Both the position numbers and the translations under genes were made by a program. A stretch of DNA of 64,000 nt from IMG/VR virus record IMGVR_UViG_3300005683_000073, positions 531 to 64,530 of that record, one strand, 5' to 3'. Under the pieces are notes generated by a model. That model was not told where the DNA came from. It made no database searches and saw only the letters and a program-made list of their open reading frames with translations. Shown piece by piece: positions 39,203 to 47,647 of this stretch (position 1 is its first letter; the number at the start of each line of letters is the position of its first letter). This DNA is from a virus (taxonomy: Duplodnaviria; Caudoviricetes).

Positions 39203-40291
39203 CTACCCGAGCAGGGAGTCGAGGAGGTCGTCGAACCCCTTGGCCGTCGCGGGGGCGGCAGCGGCCTTGGGGGACGGCTCGTCGTCATCTGCCGGAGCAG
39301 GAGCGGAGGGCTTGGTGGCCTTCTTCTTGGCCTTCGGTGCGGGCGGCGCGGTCTCTTCCTCGTCCTCGTCGTCGGTCTGGGCCGCTGCCGGGGCGGTCGT
39401 GACTTCCACGTCCTCCTCGTCGGCGGGGCGGGCCTTGGGCTTGGGCTTGGCAGCGCGGGGAGCCGGGGCCGGAGCCGGGGTTTCTTCAGCCGCCTTGGCG
39501 GTTCCCTCGTCCCCGCCGGTAGTTCCGGCCTCGGCAAACTCAGGCGCTTCGCTCAGGATGCGGTGGGCATCCTCGCTATCACGCAGCTCGCAGACGGCCT
39601 CGTACTCCTCCTCCGAGAGGAAGCGGGGAGCGCCGTTCTCCGTAGCAACACGGAACGTGAGCTTCGGGTGCGACGCCGCCGAGTCGAAGCCGACGCGGGT
39701 GGCGACGGCGAAGTACTCGACGCCCGCAGGGCCGAGGACCTTCTCGGCGTAGTCCTTGAGCGGATTCAGCGACGCGGGCGGCACACGCATCAGGAACAGG
39801 TGCGAGTCGGTGCCCTTGCGACGCAGCTCGTCGGCGAACACCACTGCCATGCGGCGCACATCGGAGCAGGCACGCCCCTTCTTGCCGTCCTCGGAGATGC
39901 GGCTCCCCCACTGGTTGTGCGGGCAAGTGGCGCACGCAGCGTGCTGCGGCTCCTTCACGCCAGCGTCGGGCTTGATGCCGTCGCTCGACCAGCAGGTCGG
40001 CGGGGAGTTGTCGCCCTCCTTGAACTTGCTCTTGTAGAACGTCTTGGACGGCATCTTGTTCGACTTGACCAGCACCAGCTCGATGGACTGGATCGGGTCG
40101 CCGTTCTGATCGACGTAGTTGATCTCCTCGCCGGACTTGCGGATGCGCCACACCTTGCCACGGTACGAGATGATCGGGAAACCAGCGGTGACGCCAGCGG
40201 ACAGCTCGGTGCTGACGGCGCGAGCGGTATCGGCACCACGGCGCAGGTGCGCGGGGAGCTGGTTCTTGTTCAGCGGGACGAGGTTGCTCAT
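39203..40291 (-). CDS. putative ssDNA-binding/annealing protein
   Basis: FPIISYRGK.WRI, PTCWSSDGIKP, CATCPHNQWGS, KACSDVRR, RVPPASL; long acidic/Pro tail ending FDDLLDSLLG. Confidence 0.7.
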   Translation of the reverse strand: MSNLVPLNKNQLPAHLRRGADTARAVSTELSAGVTAGFPIISYRGKVWRIRKSGEEINYVDQNGDPIQSIELVLVKSNKMPSKTFYKSKFKEGDNSPPTCWSSDGIKPDAGVKEPQHAACATCPHNQWGSRISEDGKKGRACSDVRRMAVVFADELRRKGTDSHLFLMRVPPASLNPLKDYAEKVLGPAGVEYFAVATRVGFDSAASHPKLTFRVATENGAPRFLSEEEYEAVCELRDSEDAHRILSEAPEFAEAGTTGGDEGTAKAAEETPAPAPAPRAAKPKPKARPADEEDVEVTTAPAAAQTDDEDEEETAPPAPKAKKKATKPSAPAPADDDEPSPKAAAAPATAKGFDDLLDSLLG

Positions 40292-40692
40292 TAGGATCTC
40301 CGGATTCCGACGGTGATGATGGACGAGAACTTCACGCCGGGGAGCGGCGTGCCCGAGTTCGCACGATCACGCGCGACGGTCTTGTTGGCCTTCAGGTCAA
40401 CGGCGTCCCAGTCGTTCGTGGATTCGAGGTACTCACGGAACTCCGCCTTGTTCTCGACGGTGGCGGAGTCCTTGTGGTTGCGGTAGACGGTGCCCACACC
40501 CTTCGCGGTGAGGGAGTCCATGCCAAGCTCGTCGAGCTTCTGCAGGAGGATCGACTCCAGCATCTCCATGAGCTTGTTGGTCTGCTCCAGCGACTTCTTG
40601 AACTCGTCCTGTGCGGCTTCCTTCTTGTCGCGGAGCTTGATGTACGCCTCCACCAATTCGGCGGGCGTCCTAGTCGTCACGGGTTGTGACAT
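40291..40692 (-). CDS. coiled-coil phage protein (133 aa)
   Basis: ELVEAYIKLRDKK coiled coil, GVGTVY, LPGVKF; TAATG coupling. Confidence 0.75.
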   Translation of the reverse strand: MSQPVTTRTPAELVEAYIKLRDKKEAAQDEFKKSLEQTNKLMEMLESILLQKLDELGMDSLTAKGVGTVYRNHKDSATVENKAEFREYLESTNDWDAVDLKANKTVARDRANSGTPLPGVKFSSIITVGIRRS

Positions 40693-40718
40693 GCGATGCT
40701 CTCCTTGTGGCTCTATCG

Positions 40719-42251
40719 TTATTCGAACATTTCCAGCAGAGCGCCCTGAAGCGACGACTTCTGCTGCAGGCGTCGGTACAGCTTGCTCTCGACCGCAGTC
40801 CCAGTCAAGTGCATTATGAGCTGTTTCCTAGTCTGTCCGGGCCGGGTGATTCTAGCACACGCTTGCTCATAAGTTTCAAGCGAAGTCGAGGGCGAGAACC
40901 AGATGATGACGTTGGCAGAGGTCAGGGTCAGGCCGTGAGCCATGCACTTGGGGTGGGCGACCAGCACCCGTGGCAGCTCGGCGGACTGGAACTCCGTGAA
41001 GATCCTGTCGCGGGCCTGCTTGGGGGTTTCGCCTGACACCTGCTCCACACTGTAGCCGAGGGCCTTGAGCCGTTCGGCAAGCATCTTCGATGCGTGGATG
41101 AAATCGACGAAAACAATTACTTTCCCCTCAGCCTCGTCCAGCAGCTCGGTCAGAGCATCCATCCGGGGGGAGTTGTCCAGCTCGACGGGCGTCCCGGTCT
41201 TGGTGTAGACGAAGCCGGTGGTGATCTGCAGCAGCTTCGACATGAGGACGCCTTCGTTGGCGGCGTTTACCTCACCACTGGCAAACCCGACCTTCATGTG
41301 GCGAACCATCTCGTCGTAGATCCGCTTCTGCTCCTTCGTGAGGGGAGCCTCGCGCGTGTCGTAGACTACGGGAGGCAGCTCCACGCAGTCGTCGCGCTTG
41401 AAACGCACGGCGGGCTGGAGCATCTCGTACACCGTCTCCTTGGCGTCCTCGCGCGGGATCCAGCGGAAGGTCGAGACCTGCCGCATGGTGGCTTCCTTGA
41501 AGTGCTTGAAGTACTTCGGCGCTCGCTCGGGAGTCAGGAGCTTCGCTTGCCCCCACGCATCGGGAGGCTCGTTCGGGGTCGGGCTACCAGTGAGGCCCCA
41601 AGCGAAAGCGCGGCCCGACACCAGCGCAGCAAGAGCCTTCCAACGATCAGTACGGGCATTGCGAAAAGAAGCAAGCTCGTCAACAACCACACACTGAATA
41701 TCGCTGCGTAGGCGAAGCTCAGCGCCGACAGTCTTAATGCCGTCGTGGTTAATGACGTAGATATGGTGGTCTTGCGCGAGGATCTCTCGCCGCCGCTTCC
41801 GGTCGCCATGTACTACCCCCACGCTCAGGTGATTGAAGTGACGAAAGACCTCTCTGTACCACACCGTTGTCAGGGTGGAAAGAGGTGCCACGACAATCGC
41901 CCGCTCGATCACACCGCAGCGGATCAGGAAGTCGATGGCGTAGAGCGCGGACCGGGTCTTGCCGGTGCCCATCTCCGACAGGACGTAGGCCCGTCGGTTC
42001 ATCGTGAGCATGGCAGCGGTGATCTTCTGGGTCTTGAACGGAGAGTCGCCGTTCCAGTCGTACTGCGCCATGATGGGCGCAGGGGCCTTGAGGCCGAGGT
42101 TGCGCGCGAGGCGCACCACGTCGTGCGTGTGCGGCAGGACCAGCCGCTCGCCTTCGACGCGATGCTCCGGGATCAGGTTTGCCAGCGCCGCGTTGAAGGG
42201 CAACGTCAGCGTCTTGGCATGCCTGTCTACCGCGACAGCTTGCTCAGCCAA
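40719..42251 (-). CDS. SNF2-like superfamily 2 helicase
   Basis: SEMGTGKT, VVAPLS, VVVDE, LTGSPTPN, AHGLTLT, EQACARITRPGQ. Confidence 0.92.
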   Translation of the reverse strand: MAEQAVAVDRHAKTLTLPFNAALANLIPEHRVEGERLVLPHTHDVVRLARNLGLKAPAPIMAQYDWNGDSPFKTQKITAAMLTMNRRAYVLSEMGTGKTRSALYAIDFLIRCGVIERAIVVAPLSTLTTVWYREVFRHFNHLSVGVVHGDRKRRREILAQDHHIYVINHDGIKTVGAELRLRSDIQCVVVDELASFRNARTDRWKALAALVSGRAFAWGLTGSPTPNEPPDAWGQAKLLTPERAPKYFKHFKEATMRQVSTFRWIPREDAKETVYEMLQPAVRFKRDDCVELPPVVYDTREAPLTKEQKRIYDEMVRHMKVGFASGEVNAANEGVLMSKLLQITTGFVYTKTGTPVELDNSPRMDALTELLDEAEGKVIVFVDFIHASKMLAERLKALGYSVEQVSGETPKQARDRIFTEFQSAELPRVLVAHPKCMAHGLTLTSANVIIWFSPSTSLETYEQACARITRPGQTRKQLIMHLTGTAVESKLYRRLQQKSSLQGALLEMFE

Positions 42252-42535
42252 TCAGAAAACTCCGCCGTGTTGGTTCCGTCGTACACGAACACCTTCGCGC
42301 CTGCACGCTCCATGTCGGCAATGGTGGTGAGCTGGCGCTCGGTCGGCTTCTTGCCGGGGGCCTTCGTCTCAATGGCGAAGAACTGCCCACGGAAGCAGCC
42401 GATGAAGTCGAGCGTCGGTGCGCCCATGCCGTTCTGCACAGGCATGTGGTAGTAGATCTCGTACCCCTCGTGGCGCAGGTACTCGAAGGCTTTCTTGACC
42501 TTCGCCTTCACCTTGCCCTCGGGGGTACTAGCCAT
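42227..42535 (-). CDS. VRR-NUC domain nuclease
   Basis: PEGKVK, GMGAPTLDFIGC, FAIETKAPGKKPT.RQ. Confidence 0.88.
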   Translation of the reverse strand: MASTPEGKVKAKVKKAFEYLRHEGYEIYYHMPVQNGMGAPTLDFIGCFRGQFFAIETKAPGKKPTERQLTTIADMERAGAKVFVYDGTNTAEFSDWLSKLSR

Positions 42536-42800
42536 TGTGGCACCGGAAGCAGGCCGTGGTGATCAGGAGCGCCATCTCGTCGATCGTCCCGACCTCCTGC
42601 GCATTGCCGCAATAGACCTCGACCTTGCCGTCCTCGATATCCAGCTCGACCTTCTTCCCTTCCTTGGCGGACTTCGCCAGCAGGACCATCGCTGCGCCGA
42701 CGGAGGTGGTGTACCACTCGGTGTCGATGGCATCGGGGATCAGGTCGTCGTCCTCCCCGATATAGCGCGCAGCCCATTCGTTCAGCTTCGACTTGTTCAT
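42528..42800 (-). CDS. hypothetical protein (90 aa)
   Basis: ATG at 42800 after GGAGG; acidic. Confidence 0.65.
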   Translation of the reverse strand: MNKSKLNEWAARYIGEDDDLIPDAIDTEWYTTSVGAAMVLLAKSAKEGKKVELDIEDGKVEVYCGNAQEVGTIDEMALLITTACFRCHNG

Positions 42801-42808
42801 TGACCCTC

Positions 42809-43285
42809 CTACAGGTCGTAGACCATTCCACACGTTGCCAGAAACTCCACCGAGTCTAGGTTCTGCGCATCGACGGACAGCTCTCTGCCGTTCTTGAACA
42901 TCACATGGACCTGTCCGTTCTGCTCGCAGCGAACCTTCTCGATGCGGTTGGGGAAGTGCTTGTGGAGCTTGAAAAAGAACAGCTCCCCTCGCAGGTTGAT
43001 GCTGTCAATGCTCACAAGGATGTCCCTCTGCAGGCGGTCCCGATCTTTCGAGTCCCAATCATCGAGGAGCAGCTCGAAGCCCCGCACCAGCGAACCGTCG
43101 AACGGGTCCTTCCACCGGCAGCGCAGAGCGTAGCCCATGCGCTGCATGTCGCGGTGGCAGTCCACGCGGAACTGCATCGCTTTCACCAGACGCGGGGGGA
43201 CGTTGTCCCGCTTGGTGACGTACTCGATAGCAGACATCGCCATCTGCACGATCGCGTTGTCGTCGATGCGGGATGTCAGCGCCAT
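42809..43285 (-). CDS. hypothetical protein (158 aa)
   Basis: TGATG-coupled ORF. Confidence 0.7.
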   Translation of the reverse strand: MALTSRIDDNAIVQMAMSAIEYVTKRDNVPPRLVKAMQFRVDCHRDMQRMGYALRCRWKDPFDGSLVRGFELLLDDWDSKDRDRLQRDILVSIDSINLRGELFFFKLHKHFPNRIEKVRCEQNGQVHVMFKNGRELSVDAQNLDSVEFLATCGMVYDL

Positions 43286-43956
43286 CAGCTACGCGCCTCC
43301 CAGTTCGGGCACTGCTTGACAGGGCAGTAGCCCCTGCACAGGCCGGACTTCTTCGCAGGGAAGTCGGTCGTCTTGAGCGCCAGCTCGACGCGCTGCGCGC
43401 GGGGGATGAGGTCCGCCCAGATGGCCTTCAGGTCATGCTTGGTGTACGACTTCCGGGAGATGTTCTTGTGCTTCAGCCAGACGAATGCGATGTCGAACGT
43501 CTCCAGCTCGGGCATGTACTGGCCAAGCACCGCAGCCGACATGGCGAGCTGCGTGAAGTCGTCCTTGATCTTGCCCGTTTTCCAGTCCACCACGATGGCG
43601 TGCGTACCACGCACGATGGCGAGGTCGATGATCGACCGCAGGTACACGTCGCTGGCGAAGAAATCGGTCGGCTCGAAGGCGCGGTTCAGCGCGAGCTTGA
43701 GTTCCCCGTGCTTATCACCGGGGGCACTTGCAAAACGCGCCGCCAGTGATTCGTAATGCCGTAGCGGCAGAGGGAGCGGATCTCCCTTCGTAACACGCTT
43801 GAAGAGCGCGGCGTGGATTGCGTTGCCTTCGGCTCCTGCTTCGGAGTCTCCGTATTCATCTTTGACATCCTTTGCGACGTTGATGTGGTAGTACTGCTTG
43901 GGACAGGACTCGTAACGCCCAAGGGCCGAGTAGCTCCATGCGAAAGGCTTAGACAT
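43285..43956 (-). CDS. PD-(D/E)XK (RecB/Cas4-like) exonuclease
   Basis: WSYSAL..YESCPKQY, GNAIH, IIDL, VVDWKTGK, C-terminal SGLCRGYCPVKQCP (four Cys). Confidence 0.9.
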   Translation of the reverse strand: MSKPFAWSYSALGRYESCPKQYYHINVAKDVKDEYGDSEAGAEGNAIHAALFKRVTKGDPLPLPLRHYESLAARFASAPGDKHGELKLALNRAFEPTDFFASDVYLRSIIDLAIVRGTHAIVVDWKTGKIKDDFTQLAMSAAVLGQYMPELETFDIAFVWLKHKNISRKSYTKHDLKAIWADLIPRAQRVELALKTTDFPAKKSGLCRGYCPVKQCPNWEARS

Positions 43957-44158
43957 CGGTGAAGATCTCGCAGAGTTTTGCACGGTAGCCCATGCGGTAC
44001 GCGGCGGTGCGGTCCACGCCAGTGCCAAGTGGCTCGTGCGCCTTACTGAAGTTGGACCATGCCTCGGCTGCGGTCGCGCCGTGGGGGGTGTAGACGATCC
44101 CCTTCTTGCCGGGGGCGACGATGAACCATCGCCGGTCTAAGGTTACGAACCCGCTCAT
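43949..44158 (-). CDS. hypothetical protein (69 aa)
   Basis: Start overlaps the TGA of the 45-aa mini-ORF (ATGA). Confidence 0.6.
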   Translation of the reverse strand: MSGFVTLDRRWFIVAPGKKGIVYTPHGATAAEAWSNFSKAHEPLGTGVDRTAAYRMGYRAKLCEIFTDV

Positions 44159-44208
44159 TTGCAGTCTCCAAAGGTCGGCCCGTACGCCACTTCGACCGCA
44201 ACAGGCAG
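44155..44208. repeat. imperfect direct repeat, copy 1 (polymerase 3' end duplicate)
   Basis: 44 of 54 nt identical to 44756-44809 by manual alignment. Confidence 0.9.
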
Positions 44209-44292
44209 GTCACGTTCCACGGGGACAAGACCCCGCAAGCGGGCAACCTCGGCGTCCTGAATCATTTGCAGCTTGCCGCTATTGGGGTCCAT
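44155..44292 (-). CDS. 45-aa mini-ORF ending in a copy of the DNA polymerase C-terminus
   Basis: GAGGT RBS; MDPNSGKLQMIQDAEVARLRGLVPVERDLPVAVEVAYGPTFGDCK; too short for the supplied ORF track. Confidence 0.65.
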   Translation of the reverse strand: MDPNSGKLQMIQDAEVARLRGLVPVERDLPVAVEVAYGPTFGDCK

Positions 44293-44296
44293 GTCG

Positions 44297-44524
44297 TTAC
44301 CTCGTGATGTGCTTGACGGCCCACATGACCGATTCTTCGGCCTTCGTCTTGGCGAGTGACAACTCTCGGCTCTCGCCCACGGAACCGATCAGGTTCCACA
44401 GCTCCAGACCCTTGTCCTTGATCGCCTGCATCTGCGCCTTCTCGTCGTCCGACAGGACGCGATAGGCGTGCCGCATCACGTTGTTGATCGTGCGGGCGTC
44501 GCTCGTTGAGTCTACGGTCGGCAT
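44297..44524 (-). CDS. acb2: Acb2/Tad1-family cyclic-nucleotide sponge (anti-CBASS-like)
   Basis: YRVLSDDEKAQMQAIKDKG and RELSLAKTKAEESVMWAVKHI helical hairpin; Y-x14-K and R-x6-T spacing matches Acb2 as recalled. Confidence 0.8.
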   Translation of the reverse strand: MPTVDSTSDARTINNVMRHAYRVLSDDEKAQMQAIKDKGLELWNLIGSVGESRELSLAKTKAEESVMWAVKHITR

Positions 44525-44525
44525 T

Positions 44526-44759
44526 TCAGCCTCCTTTGGCTATTGGTGAATCGACAGTCAGTTCCGGTTGATCCGCCGTGGTCGGCGCGACATAAAGCGG
44601 TCGAATCTGCGGCCCGACAGGAGCGTTGTTGCAGGCGTCACAGCACGACGGCGACCTGAGATTCATTGAAAAATCATCACACTGTCGCCAGAGCGCGCCG
44701 CAGACGATGCAGGCGTGTGTCGGGGCGAGCATGGGGTGTTGCGATGCAAATTCACTCAT
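44526..44759 (-). CDS. Cys-rich hypothetical protein (77 aa)
   Basis: ATGA overlap with the polymerase stop; CIVC and CCDAC motifs. Confidence 0.65.
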   Translation of the reverse strand: MSEFASQHPMLAPTHACIVCGALWRQCDDFSMNLRSPSCCDACNNAPVGPQIRPLYVAPTTADQPELTVDSPIAKGG

Positions 44760-44809
44760 TTGCAATCTCCAAAGGTCGGACCGTAATTGACTTCTGCCGC
44801 AACGGGGAG
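44756..44809. repeat. imperfect direct repeat, copy 2 (true polymerase 3' end)
   Basis: Encodes LPVAAEVNYGPTFGDCK*; 601 bp from copy 1. Confidence 0.9.
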
Positions 44810-46600
44810 TCCTGCTGCCCACGTCGGCGGGACCGCCATGATCTCTCCGATCGCAGCGGCGTATCGGTCAGCCTGCGCCTCGGGGACCACATAGTCAAGC
44901 TCGTCGTGGACCTGCAGGACAGGCTGTAAACCAAGCTCTTTCCGGATCGTCAGCATGTTCTCCATGACGACGATGCGGGCCAGCGCCTGCACGATGTTCT
45001 CGGTGAGCTTGCCGCCGAACAGCTTTCTCCACTCGTTCCCGAAACGGTACCACCACTCGTCGTTCTCGTGAGTGAGGTCGTTGTAGTACATCGGCATGCC
45101 GTTGGGCAGGATCACCATGCCCTTGGTCAGGGCGACGGGGCCGATCTCAGCCTTGCCACCCGTCCCGGCGAGGATCCTGATCTTGCGGTCCAGCGACCAC
45201 CACAGCTCGGGGATCTCCCGGTAGGTGTCTCGGTACACGCTCACGAAACGCTGTGCCTCGGTGAGCGGCACCTTGACCCCATCCTTGTTCAGGGTGGTCT
45301 TGAGCTTGTCGGCCCCCATGCCGTAGCCGAGGCCGAGGATGCAGGTCTTGCCGACGAAGCGGCGAGCGTCGTCCTCCGCGCTGCGCCCCTTGACCACCTC
45401 GACCTTGTACGCACGAGTGGCGAACGCCGAGTACACGTCTGCCTTGGCAGCGAACAGGTCTACGAGGATCTTGCACTCGGCCAGCCACGACACGATGCGC
45501 GCCTCGATCTGCGAGAGGTCAGCGGCCATCACGACGTGGCCCTTCGGGGCCTTCATGGCGTAGCGGATCTGCGCCCTACCGAGTTTCTTCACCACGCGCG
45601 GCGGGTTCTGCATGTTGATCTTCTGCGTGCCGCCATACCGACCCGTGTGAGCGGCGTAGTAGTTGAGCGGCACGCGGAGCTTCCCGAACTTCAGGGCGAT
45701 GTCCAGCAGCCTGCCAGCGCGCGTCTCCTGAATCGTGGACTTCACACCGATCCGTGCCTCCAGCAGGAGGGAGACCAGCGGGTCGTCCTCGTACTCCTCA
45801 CGCATCGCCTTGAACTCGGGGTCGCCCTTGGCAAAGGCGTAGGTCGGCTTGCCAGTGGTGAGGGAAATCTTCATCGGGGGATCGACCCCGACGCCCCGCA
45901 GCAGGTCGGCGAACTTGTCGTTCGACATCAGCACGTCCTTCGTGGCGATGCCCGACAGCTTCTGCAACAGCTCGGCCTTCTTGTTGATCTCGACCTGCTT
46001 GGCCTCGGCGAGCAGCTTGGCGTCCAGCTCCAGCTTCGGTTCCAGATACATGCGGTGAGTCATGTCCATGATCTGGAACTCGGAGCGGGGGAACAGCGGC
46101 TTCAGGTGCTTGAACAGCCGGTAGGTTCCTTCCACGTCGGTGCAGCAGTACTCGGCGTAGCGTTCCAGCTCCTGCCGGGACAGCGAGGCGTAGCTCCTGC
46201 CAAGCATGTTGTGAACTTCCTCGCCCTTGCGAAGCCCGTCGAAGTCGCAGTACTCAAGGCAGTACTTGAGGCCGATGCGAGGGATGAAGGGCCGCAGGTG
46301 CGCCTGCGCCATGCTGATCGTGTCGAAGATCACACCGGGCCGCAGGCCGTAGCGTTCCTGCAGGATCGTGGCGTCGAACATGGCGTTGTGGCACACGATG
46401 CCGGAGTTGGGGATGTCCAGCCCTTCGAGGAACGGCTTCACCGCCTTGCCATGCACCCAATTCACCGGGCCATCGTTCACCTTCGCTGCCACGAGGATGA
46501 CGTGGAAGCGAGGGTCCGCGATGTACTCCTCGGTGGACATCTTCGACAGGGAGAACTCCCGGTCGTAGTACGTCTCAAAGTCGAGCGTGACGATCTTCAA
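44756..46600 (-). CDS. family A DNA polymerase with 3'-5' exonuclease
   Basis: ExoI DFET, ExoII HNAMFD, ExoIII YCCTD; HTGRYGG; motif A ADLSQIEARI; motif B RFVGKTCILGLGYG; motif C VHDEL; TTG start. Confidence 0.95.
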   Translation of the reverse strand: MKIVTLDFETYYDREFSLSKMSTEEYIADPRFHVILVAAKVNDGPVNWVHGKAVKPFLEGLDIPNSGIVCHNAMFDATILQERYGLRPGVIFDTISMAQAHLRPFIPRIGLKYCLEYCDFDGLRKGEEVHNMLGRSYASLSRQELERYAEYCCTDVEGTYRLFKHLKPLFPRSEFQIMDMTHRMYLEPKLELDAKLLAEAKQVEINKKAELLQKLSGIATKDVLMSNDKFADLLRGVGVDPPMKISLTTGKPTYAFAKGDPEFKAMREEYEDDPLVSLLLEARIGVKSTIQETRAGRLLDIALKFGKLRVPLNYYAAHTGRYGGTQKINMQNPPRVVKKLGRAQIRYAMKAPKGHVVMAADLSQIEARIVSWLAECKILVDLFAAKADVYSAFATRAYKVEVVKGRSAEDDARRFVGKTCILGLGYGMGADKLKTTLNKDGVKVPLTEAQRFVSVYRDTYREIPELWWSLDRKIRILAGTGGKAEIGPVALTKGMVILPNGMPMYYNDLTHENDEWWYRFGNEWRKLFGGKLTENIVQALARIVVMENMLTIRKELGLQPVLQVHDELDYVVPEAQADRYAAAIGEIMAVPPTWAAGLPVAAEVNYGPTFGDCK

Positions 46601-47466
46601 CGGAAGTACCCCTTGAGCTTCTCCATGAGCGAGGGCCGAACCTCGGCAGGTGCCGCCACGATCGCGTCGCGCAGCTCCTCGGGCGTCGGGCCACCGGGGA
46701 GTACCGGAGGCGGCGGGGCCGTAACACGCACCCTGTGAGCATCGACGAACGAGCGCGCCTGCTTGGCCTCCTCGCGCATCTTGTCAAGTTCGGCGTAGTC
46801 GCTCCAGACATGATCAGCCAGCGCCTGACCGTGGGTCGGAGTGCGAGTGTCGAGCCTGATGTTCATGCCGCTAAGGGTGGCCATCCTTCCGGTCACAAGA
46901 GACTTCATGACCTGCGGGCCAGCGCCGTACATCTGGGCCAGAGACGCCTGCTTCATCAACTGGCGCTGAGCGGCAGCGGAGGCGGAAGCGTTCATGAGCT
47001 GCGACTGCTGGCCAAGGCCGAGAGCGGAGTTGTACACGCCCATCTGGGCACGCATTTGCTCCATCTTGTCCTGCGCCTCGTACTTCGACTTCTCGCGCAG
47101 CACAGCCAGCTCGTCCTCGGTCAGCGCCTCGGGCGCAGAGACAGGGATGATCTCGCTCCAGCCGCAGCCCTTGCAGGCCACCGTGACCAGCGCGCGATAG
47201 TTGCGCAGCGGGTCCTCGCTGTACGAGACGTGAAGTTTCCGTGCCGCAACCAGCTCATCGTCCTCCTGCTCCTGACAGGCAGGGCAGAACATCACCTGCT
47301 GGTTTTCCTCGACCTCGGGCATGCACTCCCGCCGCACAATGTGGAAGTCGCGGTACTCCCGCTTGAACACTTCCTTGGGGTACAAGTCGTCGGCGGCGCG
47401 GGGACGGATCCGGGTCAGCCGTGCGCGGCGGAGTTCCCGCCCTTGCTCACTGTCGTAGTCATTCAT
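46597..47466 (-). CDS. hypothetical protein with zinc ribbon (289 aa)
   Basis: CPAC and CKGC motifs, Q/A-rich middle. Confidence 0.7.
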   Translation of the reverse strand: MNDYDSEQGRELRRARLTRIRPRAADDLYPKEVFKREYRDFHIVRRECMPEVEENQQVMFCPACQEQEDDELVAARKLHVSYSEDPLRNYRALVTVACKGCGWSEIIPVSAPEALTEDELAVLREKSKYEAQDKMEQMRAQMGVYNSALGLGQQSQLMNASASAAAQRQLMKQASLAQMYGAGPQVMKSLVTGRMATLSGMNIRLDTRTPTHGQALADHVWSDYAELDKMREEAKQARSFVDAHRVRVTAPPPPVLPGGPTPEELRDAIVAAPAEVRPSLMEKLKGYFR

Positions 47467-47647
47467 GGAATCCTGCCCTCCTCAGTCGTGACATTGTGTT
47501 GCGAAGCGCCCGATGGTCCGACTCTGTACACCCGCACACAATCAGGTGCCTGCCGTCTGGGGAGTACATCTTGATATGCTTGTGCTTCTCGATTCTCCAC
47601 CCCTGCTGACGCAGCCGTGGCAGCAGCTCACGCAGTGCGGTGCTCAC
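47459..47647 (-). CDS. HicA-like dsRBD-fold protein (62 aa)
   Basis: LRQQGWRIE...KHIKMYSPDG...ESDHRALRNTMSRLRRAG. Confidence 0.6.
   Translation of the reverse strand: MSTALRELLPRLRQQGWRIEKHKHIKMYSPDGRHLIVCGCTESDHRALRNTMSRLRRAGFHE

Follow-up and report, generated by a model that had tools for sequence, protein, structure and literature searches.

A 45-codon open reading frame that ends in a near-copy of a phage's own DNA polymerase C-terminus is best read as a recombination scar, left where a cassette was joined to the polymerase 3′ end, and not as a dedicated gene; we place the probability of this reading at about 85%. The ORF (hereafter the mini-ORF) lies in the window, the 64,000-nucleotide stretch of DNA analysed here, which comes from a complete 64.5-kb uncultivated phage record. 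It is chimeric, the position of its junction can be located, close relatives carry an empty site, and the cassette recurs nearly unchanged in backbones that have diverged from one another.

The polymerase tail repeat and its neighbourhood

The genes under discussion are all encoded on the minus strand. Their positions, and those of the two repeat copies, are as follows:

43285–43956, minus: PD-(D/E)XK exonuclease, 223 aa (PF12705, E=4e-13; phrog_69)
43949–44158, minus: orf69, a 69-aa ORF
44155–44292, minus: mini-ORF, 45 codons, with the ribosome-binding site (RBS) GAGG and a 6-nt spacer
44155–44208, minus: relic of the polymerase 3′ end (17 codons and a stop), the in-frame tail of the mini-ORF
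44297–44524, minus: Acb2/Tad1-hairpin family gene, 75 aa (PF24729)
44526–44759, minus: Cys-rich ORF, 77 aa
44756–44809, minus: functional repeat copy, the polymerase's last 17 codons plus stop
44756–46600, minus: family-A DNA polymerase, 614 aa (PF00476, E=2e-29; PF01612; phrog_17, E=1e-84)

The polymerase, which also has a 3′-5′ exonuclease domain, terminates in LPVAAEVNYGPTFGDCK before its stop codon, the mini-ORF terminates in LPVAVEVAYGPTFGDCK, and 15 of the 17 residues match. At the nucleotide level the two copies form a direct repeat (44154–44208 and 44755–44809; 55 nt, 82% identity or 45/55, spacing 601) that is by far the longest within 42000–47000; the chance of finding at least 45 matches in 55 nt anywhere in the 64 kb is about 1e-7. 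Both copies finish AAATGA, and in each case the ATG of the next gene overlaps the stop (ATGA). The duplication reported by the first-pass annotation is thus real, and a Cys-rich ORF and an Acb2-like gene do lie between the copies, with the single correction that the Cys-rich ORF starts at 44759 and not at 44762.

The amino acids of the relic are those of the polymerase tail in contig L001, and its nucleotides are identical (56/56) to the real polymerase tail of L027; the real polymerases of relatives end in DLPVAVEVAYGPTFGDCK, the same as the relic. For orf69, the relic also provides a Shine-Dalgarno sequence (GGAG) and an ATGA overlap, with GGAGA placed 6 nt ahead of the orf69 ATG. No family match was obtained for orf69 in Pfam, PHROGs or the Atlas. 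It is missing from L001–L003 (IMG/VR; polymerase about 70% aa identity), in which the exonuclease lies directly 3′ of the polymerase and abuts it, and orf69 is therefore itself accessory. The exonuclease, 80–85% identical at the amino acid level in these three contigs, is the conserved right-hand anchor of a variable site.

The genes of the locus are tightly overlapped. A consensus scan of 43200–47600 returned no promoter-like site and three terminator-like matches against 2.7 expected from shuffles, two of the three inside the Cys-rich ORF; expression of the cassette therefore presumably relies on the replication operon and on overlapping stop and start codons.

A second variable slot is present in the same operon, 3′ of the exonuclease, where gene content is also swapped among close relatives. 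It holds a 158-aa ORF in the window (42809–43285), ORFs of 109 and 69 aa in L024 (1182–1765) and, in further relatives, an ORF of 68 aa (L032, 3977–4183) or 77 aa (L034, 3871–4104). Within the replication module, end-protection proteins of the Mu Gam type (phrog_253, E=2.5e-4) were weakly matched by a 133-aa ORF (40291–40692) that scores best against a PHROG annotated as ‘minor head protein’.

The mosaic make-up of the cassette

The Acb2-like gene matches PF24729 at 70.9 bits (cut-off 27; E=1e-19) over model positions 1–58 of 58, and encodes a putative sponge for cyclic-nucleotide immune signals. A profile search of the PDB placed Vs.4 (7UQ2) and ‘Acb2 homolog 43’ (9PTQ) first, as weak matches, and phmmer with the protein itself returned nothing from the PDB. 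An AF2 model (pLDDT 77.7) has a predicted three-helix fold for which the top Foldseek matches were Vs.4 (7UQ2; prob 0.99, TM 0.60) and Acb2 (8H2J; TM 0.66, rmsd 2.0), with E-values of 0.3–2, as is usual for short helical proteins. Members of the Acb2/Vs.4/Tad1 family act as sponges for signals, among them those of CBASS and Thoeris (PMC10312549; bioRxiv 10.1101/2025.08.24.671296). The window protein resembles them in scoring well above the family threshold; its predicted fold matches Vs.4 and Acb2 first, with weak statistics. It differs in being 75 aa long and only a distant relation of the solved members, with 19–22% identity in structural alignments.

The mini-ORF begins as a different gene. 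In a search of a protein collection its residues 1–29 (to 31) were 83–97% identical to the N-termini of nine longer proteins of 59–88 aa, comprising eight clusters of 59–72 aa and one 88-aa form (P0002–P0009, P0012). We class these as small viral SEC-C-motif proteins (PF02810-like); their own Pfam SEC-C matches are sub-threshold (14.7–18.2 bits against 20.4), and their Atlas neighbours are viral clusters in which 38–96% of members carry PF02810. The N-terminus common to the mini-ORF and these proteins is MDPNSGKLQMIQDAEVARLRGLVPV.RDL, and residues 1–29 are the best-conserved part of the family. Full-length SEC-C proteins then run on as T.KEKADMQIRLYSPCGCGSGKKFKFCC (also given as ...CGCGSGKKFKFCC). 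In the window, the codons CGT GAC CTG are followed by CCT GTT GCG GTC GAA, as in the polymerase tails of relatives (PDL-PVAVEV...); polymerases P0013 and P0014 end in PDLPVAVEVAYGPTFGDCK.

Because SEC-C homology extends up to GACCTG and polymerase-tail sequence follows from there on, the mini-ORF is a chimera of about 29 codons of a truncated Acb2-associated gene fused in frame to the relic polymerase 3′ end. It shares with the SEC-C proteins its first 29 residues, its start codon and its position right after Acb2, and differs as a truncated fusion with a polymerase ending: the C-terminal Cys motif (CxC..SGKKxKxCC) is absent. What it has in common with a family-A polymerase is confined to the last 17–18 residues, and it has no Pfam match and no polymerase domain with catalytic motifs. 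Since the RBS of the mini-ORF is the one native to the SEC-C gene, its peptide is probably translated.

The joins of the cassette, and the SEC-C portion of the mini-ORF, were located at these positions:

44741–44759, minus: left junction J1, the polymerase-overlapping ATG plus about 6 codons (MSEFASQ), then Cys-domain homology (HP.L.PTH)
44565–44583, minus: internal junction J2, a mosaic switch in a stretch of about 12–19 nt, GCGGATCA.CCG (‘ADQP’)
44209–44292, minus: 5′ part of the mini-ORF, with the start codon, RBS context and codons 1–28 of a truncated SEC-C-motif gene
44206–44211, minus: right junction J3, GACCTG microhomology (Asp-Leu), RDL in the SEC-C gene and PDL in the polymerase tails of relatives

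The Cys-rich ORF, whose start codon is the ATG within the polymerase ATGA, corresponds to the C-terminal Cys-rich domain of phage proteins of 134–137 aa, minus their N-terminal domains. It is 80% identical to P0010 (from L030) and 84% identical to P0011 (from L031), two proteins with N-terminal domains unrelated to each other, and its DNA is 89% identical to L030 over 44565–44723. J1 was placed by protein and DNA comparison with these two; the first 13 nt there resemble the start of orf69 (9/13), a likeness we regard as no more than suggestive. The domain has the pattern C..C...C....CC..C, of which the window copy is the bare domain and other copies lie at 1031–1435 of L030 and 509–922 of L031. 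No family was assigned to the ORF in Pfam, PHROGs or the Atlas, the last giving vague zinc-binding leads only. A three-way alignment and blastn limits show the stretch at J2 to be common to the L030-like Cys-domain gene and to an L043-like gene upstream of Acb2, and the last 12 or so codons of the Cys-rich ORF, together with the Acb2 leader, match the L043-like source. J3 was placed by codon-register alignment, and homology to L043 and L044 stops there.

Elsewhere, Acb2 and the SEC-C gene occur as a two-gene module. In five independent contigs (L021, 5765–6180; L022, 2773–3194; L023, 1037–1461; L043, 706–1153; L044, 43–466) the SEC-C-motif gene starts 4–5 nt after an Acb2 gene that is 77–99% identical to that of the window. 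These contigs are otherwise unrelated, with an integrase (L021), RecT (L023) or HNH gene nearby. The DNA of L043 is 97.9% identical to window positions 44583–44206 and diverges right after GACCTG. No contig was found in which the same Cys-rich ORF and Acb2 are followed by a full-length SEC-C gene, with or without the polymerase upstream. Within this Acb2 clade the SEC-C-motif gene is conserved as a neighbour, and it is a possible counter-defence partner.

Empty sites, other cargo and diverged backbones

The segment that is present or absent among close relatives has either of two equivalent limits:

44209–44809 (equivalently 44155–44755), minus: 601 bp comprising one tail copy, the Cys-rich ORF, Acb2 and the SEC-C fragment

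At least nine close-relative contigs (L032–L040) lack precisely this 601-bp segment and read polymerase–GTGA–orf69–exonuclease, the polymerase stop overlapping the start of orf69. Their blastn alignments to the window break at 44755 and resume at 44209, and each copy in the window is matched by their 56-nt tail. Of 22 contigs that were read for the empty-site orf69 allele, about 20 are empty; the window-type allele turned up in the window-like genome alone, and no empty-site twin of the window backbone was found. Three relatives (L006, L011, L015) carry other small ORFs at the polymerase–exonuclease junction, so that both checks proposed by the first-pass annotation, for relatives without the segment and for different cargo at the site, gave positive results. 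Beside this other cargo, local alignment scores for tail relics were no better than those of shuffles; the duplication is therefore not a general mechanism at this site, which counts against our reading.

Small accessory ORFs collect at the junction (43956–44756 in the window), a hot spot where at least five arrangements are seen: an empty site, orf69 by itself, orf69 together with the Acb2 cassette, an MLKAA... ORF alone or accompanied by a second ORF, and, in L011, a different ORF. A scan of metagenomes for the tail pattern returned 11 loci, among which a related polymerase was present only in L011 and L015; the other nine had no tblastn similarity to window proteins at E ≤ 1e-3. Among INPHARED phages, a DNA search with 43200–47500 found no relatives, and a protein search found distant polymerases only, at most 37% identical.

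The exact mini-ORF was recovered on at least eight contigs from different samples and assemblers, and carriers of the cassette come from at least seven samples and four assembly pipelines. Their flanking genes differ by 13–25%. Contig L027, which spans the whole structure, has a single mismatch to the window over the roughly 590 nt that run from the final 8 or so nt of the polymerase to mid-relic, and its polymerase 3′ end, orf69 and exonuclease differ from those of the window by 13–20%. Between 44444 and about 44181, three further carriers (L024, L026, L028) show no difference from the window, after which they diverge by 13–18%. Measured against the empty-site contig L034, right-hand backbone identity is 100% for L027 and L028, 98% for L026, about 90% for L024 and about 84% for the window. 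The boundaries of cassette identity fall inside both tail copies. The first-pass annotation had proposed that recombination with a related phage at the polymerase 3′ end inserted the cassette and left direct repeats permitting its gain or loss. A near-identical cassette in diverged backbones, bounded within the tail copies, supports recombination at this place and such a role for the repeats; the exchange was not a simple homologous one, the right-hand join being illegitimate, mediated by microhomology and made with a foreign SEC-C-motif gene.

The tail of L034 consists of the 5′ part of the left copy of L027 and the 3′ part of its right copy. L034 shares the GTGGCG (Val-Ala) allele with the relic, and the eight other empty sites have GTCAAT (Val-Asn). 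L034 may be either a recipient or precursor, or a deletion product of an L027-like carrier; on either account its alleles place the crossovers in the tail copies. Set against L032, L033 and L035–L040, the GTGGCG allele at 2950–3005 of L034 may be a footprint of cassette loss via the repeats.

Among carriers, four substitutions are seen in the mini-ORF, all synonymous and all in its last 27 nt. The four differences are alleles of the real polymerase tail in L034-type relatives, where the tail is functional, and for that reason carry no information on whether the peptide is under selection. A dN/dS analysis of the mini-ORF, as had been suggested at first pass, is consequently uninformative: the cassette is virtually invariant, and its four synonymous changes come from recombined backbone.

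Logan contigs from five samples (L024, L025, L026, L028 and one other) all end inside Acb2, at 44438–44444. These breaks are probably caused by other Acb2 variants with common k-mers that co-occur in the samples; if so, donors and recipients live together.

Proposed history of the locus and competing readings

We propose that composite foreign phage DNA, consisting of the Cys-rich ORF, the Acb2-family gene and the first 29 SEC-C codons, joined the polymerase 3′ end, and that the right-hand join was illegitimate, at GACCTG between SEC-C codon 28–29 and polymerase codon −18. As a result, two copies exist of 54–56 nt of the polymerase 3′ end. The upstream one leaves the essential polymerase whole and supplies the ATGA start for the Cys-rich ORF; the downstream one preserves for orf69 the Shine-Dalgarno sequence and the overlap of stop and start with which it begins in relatives with an empty site. 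By chance the join maintains the reading frame, so that reading from the SEC-C start continues across the relic as far as the former polymerase stop and yields the 45-aa chimeric ORF. The tail copies and flanking genes may then have served as the homology that spread the cassette among related phages, and may also allow its deletion. Selection would act on the Acb2 gene as counter-defence and, within the relic, would be limited to the last 15–20 or so nt, where the translation start of orf69 is the likeliest reason that part of the relic matters. The peptide itself would be a by-product, probably made but with no maintained function. Counting against this history are the failure to find any contig with the complete donor arrangement, so that the order of events and the left junction can be proposed only tentatively, and the condition of the ORF, which is in frame and intact in all carriers and has a good RBS, as a functional peptide would show.

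The alternatives, all of low probability, are taken in descending order. The relic could have been kept solely as the initiation region of orf69, with the repeats playing no part in spread; the cassette would then have a single origin and vertical descent, with flanking recombination eroding linkage. The position of GGAGA within the relic, just before the orf69 ATG, is consistent with this, and homology in the polymerase and exonuclease alone would be enough for exchange. We nonetheless judge it improbable, as the switch from identity to divergence lies inside the tail copies on both sides, which is expected if crossovers used them. It differs from the scar explanation in emphasis only.

There is a somewhat smaller chance that the 45-aa peptide is a maintained product, either a decoy of the polymerase C-terminus that sequesters a host sensor or a partner in the replisome, as the first-pass annotation had suggested, or a fragment of the SEC-C protein partnering Acb2 that is functional or dominant-negative. 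In all of the carrier contigs (at least eight) the ORF is undamaged, in frame and equipped with its native RBS, every substitution in it is synonymous, and its 29 N-terminal residues are the best-conserved part of SEC-C. However, near-identity of the cassette in all carriers means that there has been no time for decay, and the synonymous changes, being L034-type polymerase alleles, reflect selection on polymerases. The ORF is missing from most close relatives, the zinc-binding SEC-C motif is lost, and two thirds of the peptide is foreign, the truncated N-terminus of an unrelated gene; the decoy proposal thus finds no support. The polymerase aligns colinearly with Klenow fragment up to residue 588, 24–26 residues short of both C-termini. 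In the structure of Pol I, the polymerase tail corresponds, we presume, to the terminal palm strand near the active site; on these grounds the tail would be the last palm strand and not an exposed docking tail, which speaks against a decoy.

Slimmer still is the prospect that the chimeric product is a new small effector, combining the conserved SEC-C N-terminal helix with the terminal strand of the polymerase. Such an effector could disturb the host target of the SEC-C protein, or whatever recognises the polymerase C-terminus, and were this so, a gene born from a recombination scar would have been caught at birth.

A dedicated cassette system, with the polymerase tail as the attachment site of a site-specific or homing-type insertion, would account for a precise 601-bp indel, flanking direct repeats and a site that varies among relatives. 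We think it very unlikely, because neither a recombinase nor a homing endonuclease nor an integrase was found in or beside the cassette, short microhomologies within truncated genes mark the joins, no repeats accompany other cargo at the site, and the repeat is simply coding sequence of the recipient. In the same respects, the want of a dedicated recombinase or endonuclease nearby and of a tail relic beside other cargo, the locus differs from integron-like and homing cassette systems. Finally, although several Logan contigs break inside Acb2, the duplication is almost certainly no assembly or chimeric-contig artefact, which the first-pass annotation had also thought unlikely: the copies differ at 10 of 55 nt, two short contigs (L027 from JGI, L029 from ENA) span both, the structure recurs across samples and pipelines, and the breaks are explained more simply by Acb2 variants that share k-mers.

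The scar explanation places the locus within a familiar process. Under the Hendrix/Hatfull model, phage ‘morons’ and mosaic joints are made by illegitimate recombination and then exchanged between homologous or homeologous sequences. As in that model, accessory genes here lie between two conserved genes of collinear genomes and are present or absent between close relatives, with joins that cut genes at microhomologies of a few bases and spread by recombination in the flanks. A classical moron carries its own promoter and terminator; in 43200–47600 no promoter-like site was found, and terminator-like sites were no more numerous than in shuffles. The scar is unusually legible, the end of an essential gene being duplicated over 54–56 nt and read in one frame with a foreign gene that has been cut short. 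Among the genes covered (39203–47466), none was recognised as a single-strand-annealing recombinase. Elsewhere, lambda Red promotes exchange between diverged sequences (PMC2327257). The locus is a new instance of the mosaic or moron process, and not a new kind.

What it offers is a nucleotide-resolved natural example of a phage acquiring a counter-defence gene, in which donor-like sequence, empty site, three joins and scar are visible together and one and the same cassette recurs in several diverged backbones. Such recurrence is consistent with Acb2 being under selection in a phage population that recombines. The mini-ORF also shows that small in-frame ORFs resembling mimics of protein tails can be by-products of joins, which calls for caution in annotation and in searches for decoy peptides.
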